Positions 18,884 through 45,378 are shown, counted from the stretch's first letter. The stretch is DNA of 64,000 nt from Anaerolineae bacterium (GCA_022825675.1 JAJDWK010000096.1:11820-75819); one strand, 5' to 3'. The notes: a model not told the origin generated them from the sequence alone. Numbers and translations are program-made.

Positions 18884-19594
18884 TTACATCCGCTCCACTT
18901 CCATAAAACTGAGGGTGACCGCCGTCTCGCGCCCAAAGAAATCAACTAGAACCCGCACCTTCTCGCGCCCGGAATCGATAGTGGCGACTGTGCCCGGGAA
19001 GTCGTTGAAAGGACCGCCAACAATGCGGATGCGCTCGCCGATTTTGTAATCGACCTTGACCACCATGTCTTCCGATTCCATGCGGTCCATGATGCGTTTG
19101 ACTTCTTCGGGGCGCAGGGGGGTGGCTTGGATGCCAGCTTCGTGGTCCGCGCCGACAAAGCCGACAACGCCCGGCGTATTGCGCACCACCCACCAGGCGT
19201 CATCATGCAGGCGGTACTCTTCCTTATTCTCTTCCAGCTTGTCCTCGTCCAGGAACCAGCGCATCTGCACCATGACATAGCCGGGGAAGACACGCTTTTC
19301 TACTGTGCGGCGCTTGCCGTCTTTGACTTCGATTTCGTCTTCAGTCGGGATGAGCACATCAAAGATTTCGTCGCTCATGCCCATGCTCTCGATGCGGCTT
19401 TCCAGGGCGTTCTTGACCTTGGCTTCGTAGCCGGAATAGCAGTGGATGAAGAACCACTCACGCTCTTTTTCGACCTCGCCCGCTTCTTCTTCCGGCGCGA
19501 TGTTCACATCAGCGGCGTCTTCTCCGTCTTCGAGATAGACGGGGGCGGGGTCATAGTCGGTCAAGCTGAAGGTGTCGCGTATGCGTTCGCTCAT
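18884..19594 (-). CDS. nusG: Transcription termination/antitermination factor NusG (N-terminal acidic extension and NGN insertion)
   Basis: WFFIHCYSGYEAKVKNALESRI... NGN domain; C-terminal KOW (GERIRIVGGPFNDFPGTVATID). Conserved position after secE. Confidence 0.9.
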   Translation of the reverse strand: MSERIRDTFSLTDYDPAPVYLEDGEDAADVNIAPEEEAGEVEKEREWFFIHCYSGYEAKVKNALESRIESMGMSDEIFDVLIPTEDEIEVKDGKRRTVEKRVFPGYVMVQMRWFLDEDKLEENKEEYRLHDDAWWVVRNTPGVVGFVGADHEAGIQATPLRPEEVKRIMDRMESEDMVVKVDYKIGERIRIVGGPFNDFPGTVATIDSGREKVRVLVDFFGRETAVTLSFMEVERM

Positions 19595-20015: not shown

Positions 20016-20108
20016 GCGCGCTTACTCCTCACTGTCCTTTGAACGCCGCGTTTCCGCTTTTCAATTAGCGATTGCGCCTGAGCCTGCTGGCGGCGTCTTG
20101 CCTATCGA

Positions 20109-20181
20109 CAGGGGCAGGAGGGCTCGAACCCCCGACCTACGGTTTTGGAGACCGTCGCTCTACCAACTGAGCTATACCCCT
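20109..20181 (-). tRNA. tRNA-Trp (anticodon CCA)
   Basis: Hand-folded cloverleaf AGGGGTATAGCTCAGTTGGTAGAGCGACGGTCTCCAAAACCGTAGGTCGGGGGTTCGAGCCCTCCTGCCCCTG. Confidence 0.9.
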
Positions 20182-20220
20182 AAGCTGCTTCCATACTGTA
20201 CATCAATACGCGGGGAAAAT

Positions 20221-20382
20221 CTACTTGGTTTCTCGATAGAGAACATGCCGGCGCAGATAGGGGTCATACTTGCGCAACTGCAAGCGCCCCTGGGTATTGC
20301 GGCGGTTCTTCTCGGTGATGTAGATATGCCCGCTTTCTGTGCTGCGCATTTTGACGACAATGCGCTGCCCCCGCTTTGCCAT
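20221..20382 (-). CDS. rpmG: 50S ribosomal protein L33
   Basis: 53-aa ORF below the track cutoff: [66 protein letters not shown] upstream. Confidence 0.9.
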
Positions 20383-20470
20383 ACCCTTCCTCCTTATCCG
20401 CCAGCCTTTTCCTTATCCGCTATGCGGCGGGCGGCTGGCGCTCGTATTCCTATGCCGCGGTCCCGTCAAG

Positions 20471-20542
20471 AGCCTCCGATGAGATTTGAACTCATGACCT
20501 CGCCCTTACCAAGGGAGCGCTCTACCCCTGAGCTACGGAGGC
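20471..20542 (-). tRNA. tRNA-Thr (anticodon GGT)
   Basis: GCCTCCGTAGCTCAGGGGTAGAGCGCTCCCTTGGTAAGGGCGAGGTCATGAGTTCAAATCTCATCGGAGGCT. One mismatch in the anticodon stem. Confidence 0.8.
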
Positions 20543-20581
20543 AATGCCCCGCCCATGCAAGCGCGGCGGGGATGAAACAAG

Positions 20582-20664
20582 TGGGCCGGACTGGATTCGA
20601 ACCAGTGTAGGCTCTCGCCAGCGAATTTACAGTCCGCCCCCTTTAGCCACTCGGGCACCGACCC
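20582..20664 (-). tRNA. tRNA-Tyr (anticodon GTA), long variable arm
   Basis: GGGTCGGTGCCCGAGTGGCTAAAGGGGGCGGACTGTAAATTCGCTGGCGAGAGCCTACACTGGTTCGAATCCAGTCCGGCCCA. Confidence 0.9.
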
Positions 20665-20687
20665 ATTTGATTCGGCTGTTAAGCCCT

Positions 20688-20759
20688 AGCCACCACTGGG
20701 ATTCGAACCCAGAACCCCCTGTTTACAAAACAGGCGCTCTGCCATTGAGCTATGGTGGC
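20688..20759 (-). tRNA. tRNA-Thr (anticodon TGT)
   Basis: GCCACCATAGCTCAATGGCAGAGCGCCTGTTTTGTAAACAGGGGGTTCTGGGTTCGAATCCCAGTGGTGGCT. Confidence 0.9.
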
Positions 20760-28174: not shown

Positions 28175-28253
28175 ATCTCTAGCATAAGCGTAACTTCCTT
28201 GTAAGATGCAGGGCTTAGGCTCAACGGTATTCACGGAATTTGGAGAGCAAGGC

Positions 28254-29426
28254 ATGCTAAAGCGAATTCGACCCAATCCGCTGCTGCTGTTTACCTTTGC
28301 CCCGCTGATTCTGCTGCTCTTGATAGCCAATCTGCCCTCCCCCGAGGTCTCTCAAGCCGAGCGGTCCTGCGCGCCCCAGCACCTGAGAACTGTCAATTGG
28401 AGCACCGATTTCTGCAACAGCGCTGTTGATTATGCCGACATATTGGTGGGCAATCCGACAAAAGATGGCATCCCCGCTTTGAGCGAGCCGCGGCTGGAAT
28501 CCATTGAAGAAGCGGCGGAGTGGCTGGTCGAGCGCTCGCCCGTCATCGCGCTTGCCCTGGGCGAAGAAGCGCGCGCCTATCCCCTGGCAATTCTGATGTG
28601 GCACGAAATTGCCAACGACAGCATCGGCGGCATACCAGTAGCCGTGACCTTTTGCCCGCTCTGCAACAGCGCCATCAGCTTCGACCGCCGCGTTGATGGC
28701 ATTGAGCTGGAATTTGGCGTCAGCGGTTTGCTGCGTAACAGCGACCTCATAATGTATGACCGCGAGACCGAATCCTGGTGGCAGCAATTGACGGGCGCGG
28801 GCTTGGCGGGCGCATATACCGGCGCGGCGCTGGATATCCTGCCCTCCCAACTGCTTAGCTTCGGCGCTTTTGCCGAGCGTTACCCGGCGGGATTGGTGCT
28901 ATCCCGCGATACTGGCTACAGCCGCCAATACGGCATCAACCCTTACAACGGCTATGACAGCCGCGCTGGGCAGCCCTTCCTCTTCCGCGGCGCGGTGGAC
29001 CCGCGGCTGCAATCGCCAGTTGCGCGGGTGCTGGCGGTCGCGCTTGATGATGTCGCCAAAGCCTATCCCTTTGCGCTGCTGCGCGAGCGGCTGGCGCTCA
29101 ATGATCAACTGGGCGAGGTGCCGGTTGTCATCTTCTATCAGAGCGGGGTCGCCAGCGCTTTGGACGAGCGCGCCATCGATACCGCGCGCGATGTCGGCAG
29201 CGCCGGCATGTACCGCGCGGAAGTGGATGGGCAGCGGCTGACTTTCCACAGCGAGGCGGCGGGCGGCTTCCGCGATGCCGAGACCGGCAGCAGTTGGAAC
29301 GCCTTTGGCGAGGCGATTGCCGGCGAGTTATCCGGCGCGCAGCTGCAATGGATTGACGCCTTCCCGCATTTTTGGTTTGCCTGGGCGGCATTCTACCCAG
29401 AAACGGAACTGTATACCCTGCCCTGA
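28254..29426 (+). CDS. Secreted DUF3179 domain protein (paralogue 1)
   Basis: Signal/TM MLKRIRPNPLLLFTFAPLILLLL; hallmark VAVTFCPLCNSAISFDRRVDG...FGVSGLLRNSDLIMYD...WWQQLTG. Confidence 0.8.
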   Translation: MLKRIRPNPLLLFTFAPLILLLLIANLPSPEVSQAERSCAPQHLRTVNWSTDFCNSAVDYADILVGNPTKDGIPALSEPRLESIEEAAEWLVERSPVIALALGEEARAYPLAILMWHEIANDSIGGIPVAVTFCPLCNSAISFDRRVDGIELEFGVSGLLRNSDLIMYDRETESWWQQLTGAGLAGAYTGAALDILPSQLLSFGAFAERYPAGLVLSRDTGYSRQYGINPYNGYDSRAGQPFLFRGAVDPRLQSPVARVLAVALDDVAKAYPFALLRERLALNDQLGEVPVVIFYQSGVASALDERAIDTARDVGSAGMYRAEVDGQRLTFHSEAAGGFRDAETGSSWNAFGEAIAGELSGAQLQWIDAFPHFWFAWAAFYPETELYTLP

Positions 29427-29472
29427 AGCAGGCGCATATCGCGCCGAGTAGACGATACAAAAAGGAAATCCC

Positions 29473-30645
29473 ATGTGCAAACGAAGCCTGAGCTTTGCCC
29501 TGATTCTTTGGCTCTGCGCCGCCTGGATGATGCCGCTGGGCGCATCGGCGCAGCTTTCTTGCGAAGAGCCGCCGCCACCCTTTGATAATACGCAGCTGCT
29601 GGAAAATTGGCAGCGGGTTTGGAACCTGACCGATGTCTGCCGCAGCGTTGACGGCGTTTTCAGCGAGATACTCTCGGGCGGCGTCGGGCGCGATGGCATC
29701 CCGCCGATCGATGCCCCCCAATTTGAAGACATCGCTGACGCTGATGCCTGGCTGCAGCCCGCTTCGCCCGTGATTGCGCTGGAAGTTGCCGGCGCTGCCC
29801 GCGCCTATCCACTGGCGATTTTGACGCGGCACGAAATCGTCAACGATGTTTTCGGCGATGTGCCAGTCGCGGTTACATTTTGCCCGCTTTGCAACAGCGC
29901 GGTTGTCTTCGACCGCCGCGTTGATGGCGAGCGGCTGCGCTTCGGCGTCAGCGGTTTGCTGCGCAACAGCGACCTCATCATGTGGGATGATGTAACCCAA
30001 TCGCTCTGGCAGCAGTTGACGGGCGAGGGCATTGTCGGCGCGTATACGGGGCACCTGCTGGATATTGTGCCATCGCAGCTGGTTGGCTACAGCGCCTTCA
30101 AAGAGCGCTATCCCGAGGGGCAGGTTCTCTCGCGGCAGGGGCGGCTCTATGGCAGCAATCCCTATGTCAACTATGACAGCAGCGAACAGCCCTTCCTCTT
30201 CCGCGGTACGCCGGATGCCCGCTTGCATGCGACCGAGCGCGTGCTTGGCGCGGTTGTCGCTGGCAGCAGCGTCGCCTACCCTTTCAGCCAATTGTCAGAA
30301 ATGGCGCTGATCCAAGACGAAATTGCCGCGCTGCCGGTTGTCGCGCTGTGGCAGCCGGGCGCTGTCAGCGCGCTGGACGCCGCCCTTATCGACAGCTCCC
30401 GCGATGTCGGCATGGCGGCGCTCTTCGACCGCACCGTAGCGGGCGAAGCGCTGGATTTTCAGCTAAGCGATGGGCGCATCACCGATGAACAGACTGGCAG
30501 CCAATGGGATATCTTTGGGCGCGCGACAGCGGGCGCGCTGGCGGGGACGCAGCTGCGCCTGCTCAACGCCTTCCCGCATTTTTGGTTCGCCTGGGCGGCA
30601 TTTTATCCGGATACGCTTGTCTATGGCATCGACAGCGGCGAGTGA
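29473..30645 (+). CDS. Secreted DUF3179 domain protein (paralogue 2)
   Basis: Signal peptide, VAVTFCPLCNSAVVFDRRVDG...FGVSGLLRNSDLIMWD...LWQQLTG. Collinear with paralogue 1 along its whole length. Confidence 0.8.
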   Translation: MCKRSLSFALILWLCAAWMMPLGASAQLSCEEPPPPFDNTQLLENWQRVWNLTDVCRSVDGVFSEILSGGVGRDGIPPIDAPQFEDIADADAWLQPASPVIALEVAGAARAYPLAILTRHEIVNDVFGDVPVAVTFCPLCNSAVVFDRRVDGERLRFGVSGLLRNSDLIMWDDVTQSLWQQLTGEGIVGAYTGHLLDIVPSQLVGYSAFKERYPEGQVLSRQGRLYGSNPYVNYDSSEQPFLFRGTPDARLHATERVLGAVVAGSSVAYPFSQLSEMALIQDEIAALPVVALWQPGAVSALDAALIDSSRDVGMAALFDRTVAGEALDFQLSDGRITDEQTGSQWDIFGRATAGALAGTQLRLLNAFPHFWFAWAAFYPDTLVYGIDSGE

Positions 30646-36894: not shown

Positions 36895-37932
36895 TTAGCG
36901 GAAGGGAGCGGCGTAGAGCAAGCCGCCGCGGGTCCACAAATCGTTCAAACCGCGTTCCAGCCCGAAAATGGTATCGGGACCGAGGTGGCGATCATAAATC
37001 TCGCCATAATTGCCCAGCTGCGAAATCACATCGACCATGAACTCGTCATTGATGCCGAGGTATTCGCCAGCGACATTGTCGCCCAAGCCCAGCAGACGGC
37101 CGATGCCAGCATCTTCACTTTCCATGTGATCGCCGATGTTCATGCTGTCGATGCCAAATTCTTCTGCTTGTACCAGACCCCACACCGTCCAGCGGATGAT
37201 ATCGGCGAAGCGGGCGTCGCTCTGCGGGCTGACGGGACCGAGAGGCTCTTTGCTGATGGCGCCGGGCAGGATGGTATGCGCGGCGGGATCAGCCGAAGTG
37301 GCTTTGCGCGAAACCAGGCTGCTGATATCGCTGGTGAAGGCGTCACAAGCGCCAGCTTCGTAGGCGTCCATGATGGCGTCAAAATCGGGGAAGGTGCTCA
37401 ATTCCCAATCAGCGCCCAGCTCGTTCGCCTTGTCGGTGATATTCAGCTCGGTGGTGGTGCCGGCGGTGGCGCACATCACGATGCTTTCTTCGCCGAGCTC
37501 CGCAATGGTGCTGACGCCGAAATCAACCTTGACCATGATGCCCTGGCCGTCATAGAAAGTTGTGGGACCAAAGGTGGCGCCCCATTCGGTATCGCGGCTC
37601 ATCGTCCAGGTGGTGTTGCGGCTGAGCATGTCAATCTCGCCACTGGCGAGCGCGGTCGGGCGTTCCGCCGCTGTCAGCGGGCGGAAGGCGATAGCGCCGG
37701 CATCGCCGAGGATAGCGGCGGCGACAGCGCGGCAAATGTCCGTATCAAAGCCGACAAATTCGCCGGCGTCATTCTGGGTGCCGAAGCCCGGCAGAACCGA
37801 GTTCACGCCGCAGATAAGCTCCCCGCGTTCCATGATACGGTCGACAATGTGGCCATCTTGCGCCGAGGCGAAGCCCACGCCAAGCGCGAGCGCGACAAGC
37901 ACTACAATCGATAACAAGCGTAAACGATACAT
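36895..37932 (-). CDS. aapJ: General L-amino-acid ABC transporter substrate-binding protein
   Basis: Signal peptide; ...ELICGVNSVLPGFG...GFDTDICRAVAAAILGD...SGEIDMLSRNTTWTMSRD...FYDGQGIMV. The J-Q-M-P gene order matches Aap/Bzt systems. Confidence 0.9.
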   Translation of the reverse strand: MYRLRLLSIVVLVALALGVGFASAQDGHIVDRIMERGELICGVNSVLPGFGTQNDAGEFVGFDTDICRAVAAAILGDAGAIAFRPLTAAERPTALASGEIDMLSRNTTWTMSRDTEWGATFGPTTFYDGQGIMVKVDFGVSTIAELGEESIVMCATAGTTTELNITDKANELGADWELSTFPDFDAIMDAYEAGACDAFTSDISSLVSRKATSADPAAHTILPGAISKEPLGPVSPQSDARFADIIRWTVWGLVQAEEFGIDSMNIGDHMESEDAGIGRLLGLGDNVAGEYLGINDEFMVDVISQLGNYGEIYDRHLGPDTIFGLERGLNDLWTRGGLLYAAPFR

Positions 37933-38225
37933 CTTCCCCCTCCTCCTTCATTAGACATGGTACATTTGGCTTGCCAATCCTGCGGGACTTTACGCGCTCC
38001 CGCGGGAATGGCTGCATAACTTTAGTAAATACCAAATTGTAAAATCTGTCAAGATACAGCGCGGTCGGGGAGCAGGGCAATCGTACAGGATAATGCGCCA
38101 CAAGGGCGCAGAGTTTTGCCTTTGTGCGTTGCATGCCGGCAACGCAAACCGCCCGGCACAGTTGCCTGCCCCGGGCGGATATGTTCTTGATGGGCGCGCC
38201 AGCCGCGGCGCGCATGCGGATGCTG

Positions 38226-38519
38226 TTAGCTGCCGGCTACAGCCATTTCAGCCGGGCGGATTGCCGCCAGCGCTTGCAAGATGCCCGCGCGCACTTCGCC
38301 CGGCTCGGCATGGCGTCCCACTTCTTTCTTGGAGAATATCAGGTCGCCATTGACCCAGACATCAAAGACGCCGCCGCCGCCAGGAACCAGCTTCCAGCTG
38401 TTGATGTAATACTCAATGTCGCGTTCGTTCAAAATTTCGTCCGTCAAACTGACGGCATTGGGTTGGTGCCCTCAAGCCGCGCAATACTTGACGACAATGT
38501 CCATTCCACCTTCTTGCAT
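38226..38519 (-). CDS. selW: SelW/Rdx-family selenoprotein; in-frame UGA (Sec) at 38474..38472
   Basis: ATG at 38519 with SD GGAGGAG 7 nt upstream: MQEGGMDIVVKYCAA-U-GHQPNAVSLTDEILNER...LVPGGGGVFDVWVNGDLIFSKKEVGRHAEPGEV. The CxxU motif and core align with SelW (VVYCGAUGY ... GFFEVMVAGKLIHSKK). Confidence 0.8.
38441..38455 (-). promoter_or_regulatory. Candidate bacterial SECIS hairpin (CCGUCA-GUU-UGACGG)
   Basis: Perfect 6-bp stem starting 16 nt 3' of the in-frame UGA, with G/U in the apical loop. Confidence 0.5.
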
Positions 38520-38561
38520 GAGAAATCTCCTCCGCTGCCACTTTATTTTGCCGATGCGCAT

Positions 38562-38590
38562 AGCATAACGCAAAGACAAGAGATATGCAA
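38562..38590 (-). promoter_or_regulatory. Sigma70-like promoter for the selenoprotein gene (TTGCAT - 17 nt - TATGCT)
   Basis: Hexamers in the 84-nt spacer between the leuS stop and the selW-like start. Confidence 0.3.
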
Positions 38591-38603
38591 ACTTCAAGCC
38601 GGC

Positions 38604-41375
38604 TCACAGCACGATATTCACTTTCGGGCTGGTTTTGTTGCGCCCGGGGATGAAGATGCTGCGTTTGGGCGGCTTGCCGCCGAGGCTGCGCTGCGCCGCC
38701 GCGCTCGCCAGCGCCAGCTCCTGCGCCTGCTCGCGCGCGATATCCGCCGCCACCGCAATCGTTTCGCGCGGTTTTCCATTTATCATCACCACCAGCTCGA
38801 CGGTGTCTTCACGCGCTTTTTCGGCGTCATATTCGAGCCAGGGCTGGGTATGCACGCTGTAGTCCCCGCCCAGGCGCTCCCAGCATTCTTCGGCGATATG
38901 CGGGGCGAAAGGCGCCAGCAAGCGTATCATCGCGCTGACGGTCTCTTGCCAGAAGCCCGCGCCGATGCCGCCCGCGCGCAGCGCCGCCTTAAAAGCGTTC
39001 TTGAACTTCATCTGCTCGGCGATGGCGGTGTTGAAGCTGAACGCTTCCAGCCCGCGGTCGATGACGGCGATGGTCTGGTGCAGCTTGCGCTCGATATCGC
39101 GCTCGGCAGCGGGGTCGCCGCTGCCAGTTGGCGCGCCGGCGGCAACAATCTCCCAGACATCGTGCAGCCAGCCCTGCGGACCTTTGATGTTATTTTCGTT
39201 CCACGGTCCGCCCTTCTGCCAATCGAAATTGAACATCAGGTAACAGCGCACGACATCAGCGCCATATTGCTCGACCAATTCATCGGGGTTGACGACATTG
39301 CCCTTGCTCTTGGACATGCGCTGGATATCCAGGTGATGCCGCAGCTGATTGACGGTGTTCTCGCCGGGGATATCGGGGATGATGACCTCAGCGCTTGGCA
39401 GGACTTCGACAAATTGCGTGACGCCCGCCATAGTCACATGCAGCACATTTTCGGTGCGGTGGGCAATCTCGCCGAAGACGCCGTCAAAACCGGCGGGCAC
39501 GGCATTCCAGTCGACAACTTCCACCCGCCGCGCCAGCAGCTTCTCGCCAGCTTGAGCGCCGCTGCAGAGCACAAAATCGCCTTGCCGTTCCGCGCCGAGG
39601 ACCTGCCCCTGGTTGCGCAGGACGGTCATCGGCTCGTCAAAAGCGCCGGCGGGGTCACGCCCGTGGCGGCGCATGGCGGCGGCGGCGTCATCATAGACGC
39701 CGATATCGCGCAGCACTTTGGTGAAGAAGCGCGTGTAGAGCAGGTGCATCACCGCGTGCTCGGCACCGCCGGTATAGACATCAACCGGCAGCCAGTAAGC
39801 CGCTTCTTCGGGGTCGAAGGGAGCGCTATCACAGCGGGGCGAGAGATAGCGCAGCTGATACCAGGACGAGCACATGAATGTATCCAGAGTATCCGTCTCG
39901 CGGCGGCGGGTTGCGTCCACTTTGTAGAAGGGCTCGTGATAGGTCAGCGGGCTCCGTCCGGTGGGCATGAAATCGACATCTTCCGGCAGCTCGACTGGCA
40001 GCTCGGCGTCTGGCACGGGGATAATCTCGCCGCCCTCATACATCATCGGGATGGGACCGCCCCAATAGCGCTGGCGGCTGATGAGCCAATCGTGCAAGCG
40101 GTAATTGACCGCTTCCTGCCCCTTGCCGGTCGCCTCCAGCCAATCCAGTACGCGGCTGATTGCCGCGTTCGCCCGCCCCTTGGCCTGGCTGCTGACGCTG
40201 CCATCCATCGGGGCGGAATTGACCATGGTGCCGGGTCCATCATAGGCGGCGTCCATATCAGCGGCTTGCAGCGGCTCCTGCATAGCCTCGGGCTGGATGA
40301 CCACCCGTATCTCCAGGTCATGGGCGCGGGCGAATTCAAAATCGCGTTGATCGTGGGCGGGCACCGCCATAATCGCGCCGGTGCCATAGGTAATCATGAC
40401 ATAATCGGCGATCCAAATCGGTATCCGCTCCTCATTCACGGGATTGATGGCATACGCGCCCGTGAAGACGCCAGTCTTTTCGCGATGTTCCTTCATGCGC
40501 TCGACTTCGGTTTCGACAGCGACTTCGTCGATATAACGCTCGACAGCGGCGCGCTTTTCCGCCGTGGTGATTTTGCTGACCAAATCATGCTCTGGCGCCA
40601 GCACCATAAAGGTCGCGCCCCAGAGCGTATCGGGGCGGGTGGTGTAGATTTCGATTTTATGCCCGCCGTCAGCGGTATGGAAGGTGGCGCGCGCGCCTTC
40701 GCTGCGTCCAATCCAGTTGGTCTGCATGATTCGGATGGCGTTGGGCCAATCCAAACCTTCAAAGTTCAGCAGCTCATCGGCGTATTTGGTGATGGCGAAG
40801 AACCATTGCTCCATCATCTTGTGTATGACGGGCTGGCCAGTGCGCTCATCCTTGCCATCGATGACCTGTTCATTCGCCAGCACGGTCTGCAAACTCTCTG
40901 ACCAATTCACCAGCGCCGAGCCGCGGTAAGCGATGCCATTTTCATAAAAGCGCTTGAAGAACCACTCCGACCATTTGTAATACTCGGGCGTGCAGGAGAT
41001 GGCTTCCCGCTCCCAATCGAACATGGCGCCCATGCTGCGCAGCTGCTCGCGCATGCGCTCGATATTGGCGTAAGTCCACTTCCAGGGGTGGATATTGCGC
41101 GAGATCGCCGCTTGCTCGGCGGGCAAGCCAAAGGCGTCAAAGCCCATGGGGAAAAGCACATTGTAGCCCTTCATGCGCATCCAGCGGGCGCGGGCATCTG
41201 ACGGCGTCATCGCGAACCAGTGGCCGATATGCAAATCGCCCGAGGGGTAAGGCAGCATCGTGAGGGCGTAATGTTTGGGCTTGTCCCAATCAACAGTGGC
41301 GCGGTAGAGCTGGGTCGCTTCCCATTTTTGCTGCCATTTGCCTTCAATGGCTCGCGGTTGATACGCTGCTGACAT
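38604..41375 (-). CDS. leuS: Leucine--tRNA ligase
   Basis: ...LTMLPYPSGDLHIGHWF (HIGH), ...RMSKSKGN (KMSKS); 923 aa. Confidence 0.95.
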   Translation of the reverse strand: MSAAYQPRAIEGKWQQKWEATQLYRATVDWDKPKHYALTMLPYPSGDLHIGHWFAMTPSDARARWMRMKGYNVLFPMGFDAFGLPAEQAAISRNIHPWKWTYANIERMREQLRSMGAMFDWEREAISCTPEYYKWSEWFFKRFYENGIAYRGSALVNWSESLQTVLANEQVIDGKDERTGQPVIHKMMEQWFFAITKYADELLNFEGLDWPNAIRIMQTNWIGRSEGARATFHTADGGHKIEIYTTRPDTLWGATFMVLAPEHDLVSKITTAEKRAAVERYIDEVAVETEVERMKEHREKTGVFTGAYAINPVNEERIPIWIADYVMITYGTGAIMAVPAHDQRDFEFARAHDLEIRVVIQPEAMQEPLQAADMDAAYDGPGTMVNSAPMDGSVSSQAKGRANAAISRVLDWLEATGKGQEAVNYRLHDWLISRQRYWGGPIPMMYEGGEIIPVPDAELPVELPEDVDFMPTGRSPLTYHEPFYKVDATRRRETDTLDTFMCSSWYQLRYLSPRCDSAPFDPEEAAYWLPVDVYTGGAEHAVMHLLYTRFFTKVLRDIGVYDDAAAAMRRHGRDPAGAFDEPMTVLRNQGQVLGAERQGDFVLCSGAQAGEKLLARRVEVVDWNAVPAGFDGVFGEIAHRTENVLHVTMAGVTQFVEVLPSAEVIIPDIPGENTVNQLRHHLDIQRMSKSKGNVVNPDELVEQYGADVVRCYLMFNFDWQKGGPWNENNIKGPQGWLHDVWEIVAAGAPTGSGDPAAERDIERKLHQTIAVIDRGLEAFSFNTAIAEQMKFKNAFKAALRAGGIGAGFWQETVSAMIRLLAPFAPHIAEECWERLGGDYSVHTQPWLEYDAEKAREDTVELVVMINGKPRETIAVAADIAREQAQELALASAAAQRSLGGKPPKRSIFIPGRNKTSPKVNIVL

Positions 41376-43538: not shown

Positions 43539-44432
43539 TTACGGTAGAGATGGGCGAAAAAGTGGTAAATTGAGTACACTCTGTTTTCCAAGCTCGATAT
43601 TTCCGTTCCAAATTTCGTCCAGATTTTCCGTAAAGCGATAGTCGTCGCGGAAGCGCGCGATAGCGTCAGCGGGACGAATTGCGCGCAGGCGCTCGCGGAT
43701 GCAGGCGGCATTATCCGGGTCAATCTCTACACCCAGCCCTGCCCGCCCCAACTGCTGGGCAACAACTAATGTCGTGCCTGTACCCGCGAAGGGATCAAAC
43801 ACCACATCGCCAGCCACCGTCGAGCTGAGCATTATGCGCAGCAGCAGGGCGATGGGCGCTTGCTGCTTGTGAAAGCGCATACCGTCGTCAGCGCGCAGGG
43901 CTTCGTCCCCAGCGAAATAGCCCGCTGTCAGCTCGCGTATGTCGTGCCAAATATCAGTAACATATAAGCCATTTTCGCGCTTGTGGCGATAATTTGCGGG
44001 CAGGGGCGGGTCAATGCGCAGGCGATGAAATACCCGCGCCCGCGGGCCTTTGGTGGCGTAGGCGATGATTTGATATTGCTTGCCAAAGCGCCGGCTCATG
44101 GGCACGGCGGATGTCAGCTTCTTCCAGATGATGAGGTTTTGCAGCGTCCAGCCGGTTTCGCGCAGGCAGGCAAGAACTTGCTCGCTGTTCTTCTCCCGCT
44201 GCATGAAATACACAGCGCCACCGTCAGCAGTCTGCGCACAGACGGCGCTGCAGACACGCTTCATCCAAGCCCAGTATTCGTCTGCGGGCATGTCGTCATT
44301 GTGCGAGGCGTAGTCTTTGGCTTGGTTAAAGGGGGGGTCAAGGAAGGTCAGGTTAAGCTCGCGCTCGGCAAAAGCGTCAGAAGCCAAAAAGTCGTTTATA
44401 TCATTTTGAAAAACGCGGCTAAGCTCACTCAT
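43539..44432 (-). CDS. Beta-class N6A/N4C DNA methyltransferase
   Basis: Motif IV LTFLDPPFN near the N-terminus and motif I VVFDPFAGTGTT near the C-terminus (IV-to-I order indicates beta class). Confidence 0.85.
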   Translation of the reverse strand: MSELSRVFQNDINDFLASDAFAERELNLTFLDPPFNQAKDYASHNDDMPADEYWAWMKRVCSAVCAQTADGGAVYFMQREKNSEQVLACLRETGWTLQNLIIWKKLTSAVPMSRRFGKQYQIIAYATKGPRARVFHRLRIDPPLPANYRHKRENGLYVTDIWHDIRELTAGYFAGDEALRADDGMRFHKQQAPIALLLRIMLSSTVAGDVVFDPFAGTGTTLVVAQQLGRAGLGVEIDPDNAACIRERLRAIRPADAIARFRDDYRFTENLDEIWNGNIELGKQSVLNLPLFRPSLP

Positions 44433-44568
44433 TATTTCTGAGTTTCAGTCGTATTGATAATGCCCCAGCAAATCATCGTCAATCATGCGCCTTCTGTTGA
44501 AGCACGATGAAGTGTGGGAGCCATCGCAAAGCTGACGCCACACACAAGGCCACAGCAGGCGGAGAAAT

Positions 44569-45378
44569 TCAATAGTTCTTGATGAAAAGTTCTTTTCCTT
44601 TTTCAGCCTTGCCTTGCATATAATTGTTCATCCCATATTGCAGCGTCCATTCGCTGATCTTCGCGAAGCTGAACAGGTCGCGGATTCGTGGCGAATCATC
44701 ATAAGTTATCAGCCACTTGTGCGGACAGCGGCGCATATTCTCGGCAAATCGTTCATGGTCAAATCCGGTGTGCAGCTTTCCATTGACGCCATAGAGCCGC
44801 GATTGCGTGGCTTTCCAATAAGGCGGGTCAAGGAAGATGAAGACTTTTTCTCCTGTCGCATGCAGCAGAGGCTCATAATCTCCGTGACAAATCTCGACCT
44901 CTTGCAGCAGCGGCTCAATCCGCCATAATCTGCCAATTGAGGATTGAGTGAAACGGCGTTCAAAAGCGTATTGCGAATAACCGCCCGAATCCACTACGCC
45001 GGAAAATGTGATGCGATTCAAGACAAAATACCGCGTCGCCCGCTGCAAATCACTTGTCATTGTGCCATCTGTGTGCAAGAAGCGCCAAAGTTCGCGCCCG
45101 TCATCATAGCAATCCTTAAACGATTGTACGCTTCGCGCCAAGTCGTCGAGATTTGTTTGCGCCGCCCGCCAGAAGTGGATGAGATCTTCGTTTAAGTCAT
45201 TTATCACATAGCGGCGTATGCGGCGTCCGAAGAGGCGTCGAATCGCCAGAAATACCGAACCGCCACCGATGAAGGGCTCGCGGTATTCTTCAATATGCGC
45301 GGGCACATGCTGGAGGATTTGCCTTATGGCGCGGGATTTGCCGCCGGGGTAACGCAGCGGACTTTTGGCAGCTTTCAT
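44569..45378 (-). CDS. Alpha-class (D12/Dam-like) DNA adenine methyltransferase
   Basis: LRYPGGKSR, motif I EPFIGGGSVF, motif IV FIFLDPPY. Confidence 0.9.
   Translation of the reverse strand: MKAAKSPLRYPGGKSRAIRQILQHVPAHIEEYREPFIGGGSVFLAIRRLFGRRIRRYVINDLNEDLIHFWRAAQTNLDDLARSVQSFKDCYDDGRELWRFLHTDGTMTSDLQRATRYFVLNRITFSGVVDSGGYSQYAFERRFTQSSIGRLWRIEPLLQEVEICHGDYEPLLHATGEKVFIFLDPPYWKATQSRLYGVNGKLHTGFDHERFAENMRRCPHKWLITYDDSPRIRDLFSFAKISEWTLQYGMNNYMQGKAEKGKELFIKNY

Follow-up and report, generated by a model that had tools for sequence, protein, structure and literature searches.

The SelW-like gene and its in-frame TGA

The 64,000-nucleotide stretch of DNA analysed here, called the window, comes from an Anaerolineae bacterium (GCA_022825675.1 JAJDWK010000096.1:11820-75819). 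On its minus strand it carries a gene for a small SelW-like protein of the Rdx family, which is very probably a selenoprotein whose selenocysteine (Sec) is encoded by an in-frame TGA. The coding sequence (CDS), 38226..38519, comprises 97 codons followed by a TAA stop codon (38228..38226). The ATG start codon (38519..38517) is preceded by a Shine-Dalgarno-like GGAGGAG (38527..38533) with a 7-nt spacer. In the minus-strand translation the frame reads MQEGGMDIVVKYCAA up to the TGA (38474..38472), continues with GHQPNAVSLTDE, or in a longer stretch GHQPNAVSLTDEILNERDIEYYINSWKLVPGGGGVFDVWVNGDLIFSKKEVGRHAEPGEVRAGILQALAAIRPAEMAVAGS, and ends at the TAA. The TGA is codon 16, and the conservation of its column in relatives suggests that it is read as Sec. 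A TGC codon (38481..38483) encodes Cys13, the putative resolving Cys of a CxxU motif, which in the window protein is C13-A-A-U16. This Cys is invariant in all orthologues and is aligned with the first Cys of CxxC in the Rdx proteins of the PDB. The positions of the ATG, of the GGAGGAG with its 7-nt spacing and of the TGA agree with those given by a first-pass annotation, which had been made from the sequence alone.

The segment upstream of the TGA has the properties of a translated region. A GGAG or AGGA is found at equal distance from the conserved M-Q start in the orthologues. At Gly4 the amino acid is fixed among 36 orthologues while the synonymous entropy of the codon is 1.46 bits, and the value for Ala14 is 1.66 bits. 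Synonymous variation with a fixed amino acid indicates that the region upstream of the TGA is translated, including the first five codons.

Gene callers treat this gene differently. In a mechanical list of open reading frames (ORFs) only the piece after the TGA appears, 38226..38447, with a TTG start and 73 residues. The first-pass annotation had called the gene unannotated, which holds in part: public records do call it, as a piece of 68-73 residues named 'Rdx family protein', in line with the expectation of that annotation that standard callers would shorten or overlook the gene. Among the matches listed from a large protein collection there are at least 121 Rdx homologues, some of them carrying the same NCBI name. 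Nearly all are 68-73 residues long because they are called from the internal TTG. The few database homologues of 'full length' have W or R at the U position, and in two entries (P0044 and P0093) the homologous TGA is translated as Trp. The W is attributed to the translation table of the gene caller, since the DNA of one such locus (L005) has TGA, and the R is explained by an AGA in the DNA of L004.

Protein family and predicted fold

For the profile and PDB sequence comparisons the 97-residue product was scored with C in place of the UGA residue. Its score with Pfam Rdx (PF10262) is 52.9 bits, the cut-off being 22.6; the match spans residues 8-78 of 97 and covers the profile from position 2 to position 70 of 74. 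The 73-residue product, which is without the N-terminal part, still scores above the threshold with 32 bits, so about 21 bits of the family signal are contributed by the segment upstream of the TGA. The NCBIfam model TIGR02174 (CXXU_selWTH) gives 44.2 bits against a cut-off of 34.2. Membership in the SelW/Rdx family, as the first-pass annotation had proposed, is thus found with both curated cut-offs. The threshold of the Campylobacter-type equivalog NF041051 is not reached (70 bits versus 88), which places the window protein in a different subfamily. The best sequence matches in the PDB are all Rdx proteins, with E-values down to 1e-5: MIEN1 (2ljk), SAV_2001 (3dex), Atu0228 (2fa8), a Vibrio SelW-related protein (2p0g) and mouse SelW (2npb). 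In these alignments U16 coincides with the second Cys of CxxC in the solved structures, for example CEPC of 2ljk and CTQC of 3dex, and the assignment of the residue to a CxxU redox centre, made earlier from the motif, is supported.

A structure model was computed for the orthologue P0002, which is 65% identical and stands in for the window protein, from an alignment of 24 sequences. The AlphaFold model has a mean predicted local distance difference test (pLDDT) of 74.8 and shows the order beta1 (8-14), alpha1 (16-30), beta2, beta3, beta4 and alpha2, with CxxU at the beta1/alpha1 junction. In a Foldseek comparison with the PDB the top 22 hits of the model are all SelW-related, followed by thioredoxins; the best hit is 2fa8 with a template modelling (TM) score of 0.85 and a root-mean-square deviation (rmsd) of 1.3 Å. 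Profile scores and model together support the window protein as a member of the Rdx/SelT-SelW-SelH family with a predicted thioredoxin-like beta-alpha-beta-beta-beta-alpha fold.

Conservation of the TGA in relatives

A tblastn search of a genome set with one representative genome per species gave 42 loci (L006-L047), all from metagenome-assembled genomes labelled Anaerolineae, Chloroflexota, Aggregatilineales or Phototrophicaceae. The matches start at residue 1 and pass through the stop. TGA is present at the codon-16 column in 42/42 loci, in the context C-A-[T/A/S]-U-G, and the surrounding peptide is conserved as MQEGGMDIVVKYCAT before the TGA and GHQPNAVSLTDE after it. In all of these loci the protein sequence is conserved before as well as after the TGA, and none of the 42 Aggregatilineales/Phototrophicaceae species sampled has a Cys replacement, the Sec form being fixed. 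A metagenome scan with the family alignment added 80 more divergent loci (41-76% identity), 77 of which were parsed. TGA is found in 76 of the 77, and the lone exception (L051:601-852, Ga0170475_115041954) has TGT, encoding Cys in the context CAPCGY. The first-pass annotation had proposed an alignment with Pfam Rdx and a search for Cys- or Sec-containing orthologues, and had regarded a lack of conservation at or upstream of the TGA as an argument against a selenoprotein; the product matches the family, the orthologues do keep both the TGA and the upstream part of the protein, and a single Cys homologue is found.

The codon directly before the UGA (38475-38477 in the window, minus strand) shows a bias of its own. 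In 36 close orthologues it is always NCT (ACT, GCT or TCT), and ACT is used in 31/31 Thr codons. In the divergent set the base before the UGA is U in 37, C in 29, G in 9 and A in 1, a weaker preference for U. The preceding U may reflect an influence of local context on the insertion of Sec.

A hairpin downstream of the TGA

A candidate core hairpin of a bacterial selenocysteine insertion sequence (SECIS) is found within the CDS at 38441..38455 on the minus strand. It consists of the 5' arm CCGUCA (38455..38450), the loop GUU (38449..38447) and the 3' arm UGACGG (38446..38441). The hairpin begins 16 nt after the TGA and its loop begins 22 nt after it, which is the 16-nt spacer plus the 6-nt 5' arm. 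In the bacterial SECIS consensus of Zhang and Gladyshev, the apical loop has 3-9 nt and the upper stem 4-16 bp; a G is present at the first or second position of the loop, within the pattern N1-G-[G/U]-N-N2, with N1 and N2 paired; the loop lies 16-37 nt from the UGA and the minimum free energy is -7.5 kcal/mol or lower (summarised in PMC13188914). The window hairpin has a 3-nt GUU loop on 6 bp or, alternatively, a 5-nt AGUUU loop on 5 bp. Its loop reads A-G-U-U-U with A25 and U29 paired, its spacing of 22 nt lies inside the range, and its energy of -7.8 kcal/mol is on the favourable side of the limit and close to it. The perfect 6-bp hairpin 16 nt after the UGA, with G and U in the loop, had already been noticed in the first-pass annotation, and it fits the published description of bacterial SECIS elements. 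As an isolated 21-nt element the hairpin has a z-score of -3.2, and 2/200 shuffled sequences fold as well. The UGA plus 42 nt folds with -11.6 kcal/mol. A possible pairing of the upstream segment GUCGUCAAG (codons 9-11) with the 3' arm was set aside, GTC being the preferred Val codon throughout the gene.

Strong synonymous constraint is observed over the hairpin. The test used 36 distinct gap-free orthologues, with 34 other conserved codons having at least 4 synonyms as the reference. For codons 22-26 (GCC GTC AGT TTG ACG) the synonymous entropy is 0 bits at every codon but TTG, where it is 0.18; the median of the reference is 1.30 bits (Mann-Whitney p = 3e-4). The mean pairwise difference at third positions is 0.00 in the hairpin versus 0.43 in codons 29-97.

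Covariation was analysed in a gap-free alignment of 112 distinct Sec-type sequences, anchored at the UGA, whose U is position 1. Here the stem is formed by positions 20-25 and 29-34. At least 5 of its 6 pairs are formed in 100/112 sequences and all 6 in 81, and 31 distinct stem sequences are present. Pair 21-33 joins two wobble positions and occurs as CG in 92, UA in 9 and GC in 2 sequences; pair 22-32 is GC in 93, AU in 7 and GU in 7; pair 23-31 is UA in 83, UG in 18 and CG in 10. Canonical cells amount to 92.3%, compared with 87.1 +/- 0.4% with shuffled partners (0/1000 reach the observed value), and sliding the arms by 1-3 nt lowers the value to 21-54%. Two-sided changes are found in 34 cells versus 5.9 +/- 2.1 in the shuffles (0/1000). 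Some of the compensatory swaps fall on Val23 and Thr26 and change both residues, to Ile/Met in L049, Thr/Val in L079 and Ala/Ala in L094 and L046. The first loop base, G26, is invariant (112/112) while the encoded residue is Ser, Arg or Gly, and at position 27 there are 85 sequences with U, 15 with C and 12 with G.

Twelve of the 112 sequences (L072, L077, L082-L085, L098, L099, L108, L111, L122 and L127) share a hairpin that is shifted by about 5 nt towards the UGA, at positions 15-31. Its stem is 15-20/26-31 and its loop CGUGA, with an RNAalifold energy of -9.3 kcal/mol. The shifted hairpin also covaries (CGGGC/GCCUG, CGAGC/GCUUG, CGCGC/GCGCG and CGUGC/GCACG), pointing to two SECIS registers within one protein family. 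In the Cys form, L051, no hairpin is found at the usual place. A different hairpin of 6 perfect base pairs, GAGCGA-GUUC-UCGCUC, is present in this locus some 7 nt nearer to the codon; it may be the relic of a SECIS or have arisen by chance.

These comparative data support the hairpin as a selected RNA structure that fits the bacterial SECIS consensus, with SelB as its putative binding partner. Because the element lies inside the CDS over A22-V-S-L-T-D27, codon choice and amino acids would both be constrained by the RNA structure. To judge from the sequences, the SECIS stem visibly steers the evolution of the protein at Val23 and Thr26.

Decoding of the TGA and alternative explanations

We consider it about 90% probable that the UGA at codon 16 is decoded as Sec with the help of the SECIS hairpin and that this is a real SelW-like selenoprotein gene. 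Translation would start from the ATG at 38519, and a 6-bp hairpin with a G-U-U loop, formed by the mRNA a short way downstream, would keep the UGA at codon 16 from acting as a stop. By analogy with E. coli and Moorella, SelB carrying GTP and Sec-tRNA(Sec) would bind the apical loop as the ribosome nears and insert Sec at codon 16. The Cys13-x-x-Sec16 pair, predicted to lie where strand 1 ends and helix 1 begins, would then most likely cycle between the selenolate/thiol and the selenenylsulfide state, and the protein would act as a thiol-dependent oxidoreductase. The actual insertion of Sec and the redox function of the product are what we infer from sequence comparison.

Several observations weigh against this reading. 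Neither the 64-kb window nor any of 45 fetched loci yields a tRNA-Sec with ARAGORN; SelA, SelB and SelD are not found in Pfam scans of 30 window ORFs or in the annotations of the central ~20 kb; and no Sec machinery is found in the fetched flanks of relatives. One locus (L004:442-735, ENA PANK22-1 scaffold_43795), which encodes the 65%-identical P0002, has AGA (Arg) in place of the TGA and nevertheless keeps a perfect hairpin, GCCGTCAGTTTGACGG; this AGA may have come from an error in sequencing or assembly, or from an inactivating or bypass mutation of very recent date. P0002 is also the source of the predicted fold, which is therefore that of an orthologue and not of the window protein itself. 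The 60-nt context of the hairpin folds no better than shuffled sequences (z = -0.48). Since the thermodynamics of this stretch are not significant, the case for a SECIS rests on the comparative evidence. RNAalifold on all 112 sequences returns three central pairs only. We attribute this to the mixing of two hairpin registers in the set, and the pairs were therefore counted directly with shuffle and slide controls. Rfam searches return nothing at the locus, whether the whole window is scanned with gathering thresholds or 38150..38650 with E <= 10, a result that we judge uninformative. To our knowledge, Rfam has no curated family for bacterial SECIS elements.

The window ORFs of SelD- or SelA-like length proved to be an alcohol dehydrogenase and solute-binding proteins. 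The Sec trait and selenoproteins have been reported in Chloroflexi (PMC1794560, Table 2), as has tRNA-Sec (PMC5389517). With these reports in support, the conserved recoding signal suggests that the organism carries selA, selB, selC and selD.

The UGA could instead be read through without selenium, as Trp, Cys or Gly by near-cognate decoding or a suppressor tRNA, and the hairpin would then be a generic stimulator of read-through or a pause site. This would agree with the failure to find Sec machinery in the window and, at face value, with the Trp in the P0044 and P0093 entries, which reflects the translation table of the caller. We regard it as very improbable. TGA is the ordinary stop of 14/37 window genes with Pfam support, including the adjacent leuS, which excludes a genome-wide reassignment and makes the recoding site-specific. 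The alignment of U16 with the redox Cys of CxxC, together with the one Cys homologue, is the classic Sec/Cys signature, and it occurs in an established selenoprotein family (PMC1088965). The hairpin moreover shows features specific to SECIS elements, namely a loop G that is invariant and precedes a U, and a spacing as expected.

Another explanation retains the selenoprotein and questions the element: the hairpin at 38455..38441 would be kept for reasons of coding or codon usage, and the functional SECIS would lie elsewhere or have another shape. Such coding constraint is conceivable where the hairpin overlaps the highly conserved peptide A-V-S-L-T-D in a gene that generally prefers GTC for Val, but it does not account for five consecutive codons with four or six synonyms being almost without synonymous change when similarly conserved codons vary. 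Nor would it lead the wobble-wobble pair 21-33 to switch jointly from C-G to U-A or G-C, compensatory changes to alter the protein on both arms, or G26 to stay invariant across Ser, Arg and Gly codons. The three pairs of RNAalifold, the shifted hairpin in 12/112 sequences and the existence of bacterial SECIS elements that deviate from the consensus (PMC13188914) are in favour of it, and the absence of the hairpin at this place in the sole Cys form is against it. Overall its chance appears very slight.

That the gene is simply the annotated Rdx fragment of 68-73 residues from an internal TTG (38447 or 38432), with the upstream 15 codons and the TGA as a decayed remnant or untranslated leader of a pseudogenised or N-terminally truncated gene, agrees with the products given by gene callers and NCBI records and with the Pfam score of the short product, yet it is extremely improbable: the 15 codons are conserved as protein across 42 species with synonymous variation and follow a conserved ATG with a Shine-Dalgarno sequence, the short product would be without strand beta1 and the whole CxxU active site, and decay would not leave a TGA at precisely one column in ~118 loci.

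Genomic neighbourhood

The SelW-like gene lies 84 nt downstream of leuS (38604..41375) and about 290 nt upstream of an SBP_bac_3 amino-acid ATP-binding cassette (ABC) transporter operon (36895..37932 and beyond, minus strand). The transporter neighbour is kept in 39/42 genome loci, and leuS is found upstream in 33/42. A sigma-70 promoter scan gives nothing between leuS and the SelW-like gene. About 50 nt after the stop codon of the gene, a candidate intrinsic terminator is observed on the minus strand (38141..38178), with the stem CCGCCCGG/CCGGGCGG enclosing an inner stem and followed by UUUGCGUU. It folds with -28 kcal/mol (z = -3.0). A simple terminator scanner does not report 38141..38178 on the minus strand, probably owing to the nested stem and the long loop. 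Tentatively, the hairpin 38178..38141 with the following UUUGCGUU may terminate the transcript of the SelW-like gene.

Further features of the window are recorded here. Its sequence has matches among metagenomic contigs and in the NCBI metagenome-assembled genome GCA_022822645.1. Two adjacent DNA methyltransferase genes, N6_N4_Mtase (297 residues) and MethyltransfD12 (269 residues), are located upstream of leuS at 43539-45378 (minus strand). This region differs between otherwise near-identical contigs: one (L001) has other genes entirely and another (L003) is without N6_N4_Mtase, so the region resembles a variable island. At 20107-20759 (minus strand), next to nusG (18884..19594) and the gene of ribosomal protein L1 (17618..18349), there is a tRNA cluster, Thr(TGT)-Tyr-Thr(GGT)-Trp; it contains no tRNA-Sec, and the setting is the usual neighbourhood of translation genes. 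Two tandem DUF3179 genes of 390 residues are found at 28206-30645 on the plus strand. Beside this pair, L001 has a GDSL-lipase-like gene (427 residues) in place of the short ORF of L002 and L003.

Comparison with known systems

Among the prokaryotic selenoprotein families in the Sargasso Sea data, SelW-like proteins with CxxU rank first in abundance; 48 genes were found there and their bacterial SECIS elements were figured (PMC1088965). They also appear in the selenoproteome study of the Global Ocean Sampling (GOS) data (PMC2398784). They occur in several bacterial phyla, with few Cys homologues in Sec-using organisms (PMC1794560). The window protein shares with bacterial SelW-like selenoproteins a length of about 90-100 residues, the thioredoxin-like fold, a CxxU after beta1 near the N-terminus and the rarity of Cys homologues. 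At the RNA level it shares the in-frame UGA followed by a small coding-region hairpin with G in the apical loop. Nothing fundamental sets it apart; the window copy belongs to Aggregatilineales/Phototrophicaceae (Chloroflexota) and is truncated in the public annotation.

The closest folds are those of Cys-type SelW-related structures (2fa8, Agrobacterium Atu0228; 2p0g, Vibrio; 3dex, Streptomyces SAV_2001; 2oka; 2obk; 2ojl), with TM scores up to 0.86 and an rmsd of about 1.3 Å to the orthologue model. They differ in having CxxC instead of CxxU and thus need neither recoding nor a SECIS. Mammalian SelW (2npb) and MIEN1/C17orf37 (2ljk) share the Rdx fold and have CxxU or CxxC at the equal structural position, but their identity to the window protein is only about 19-25%. 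Mammalian SelW also differs in its SECIS, which is placed in the 3' untranslated region and works with SBP2 and eEFSec, whereas that of the window gene lies within the CDS right after the UGA, as in bacteria.

The SECIS elements of E. coli fdhF and of Moorella thermoacetica are coding-region hairpins directly 3' of the UGA, expose G and U in the apical loop and are recognised by SelB. The window hairpin shares this placement and these loop bases, and its spacing falls within the 16-37 nt consensus range given above. It differs from them in being much shorter and simpler, with 6 bp, a 3-nt loop and no evident bulged U.

Significance for the clade

The locus is a mis-annotated new case of a known type, the SelW-like CxxU protein with an in-frame SECIS, which has been catalogued in bacteria since 2005, and current understanding is unchanged by it. 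It is chiefly of use for annotation. Throughout this clade, gene calls give either a fragment of 68-73 residues without an active site or a product with Trp at the Sec position, and as a result censuses of selenoproteomes and redox enzymes in these Chloroflexota miss it. The comparative data are also a clean example of a coding-region RNA signal that suppresses synonymous change and steers amino-acid substitutions.

For the organisms themselves, the presence of the gene predicts selA, selB, selC and selD and a need for selenium. A further idea, speculative and unlikely in our estimate, is that the SelW-like gene goes beyond a housekeeping role in redox chemistry here: it would be the main or only reason why the clade keeps the costly Sec machinery, and it might be tied to amino-acid uptake. 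If true, the locus would offer a clean natural system for following the co-evolution of a protein with an RNA signal that shares its nucleotides.

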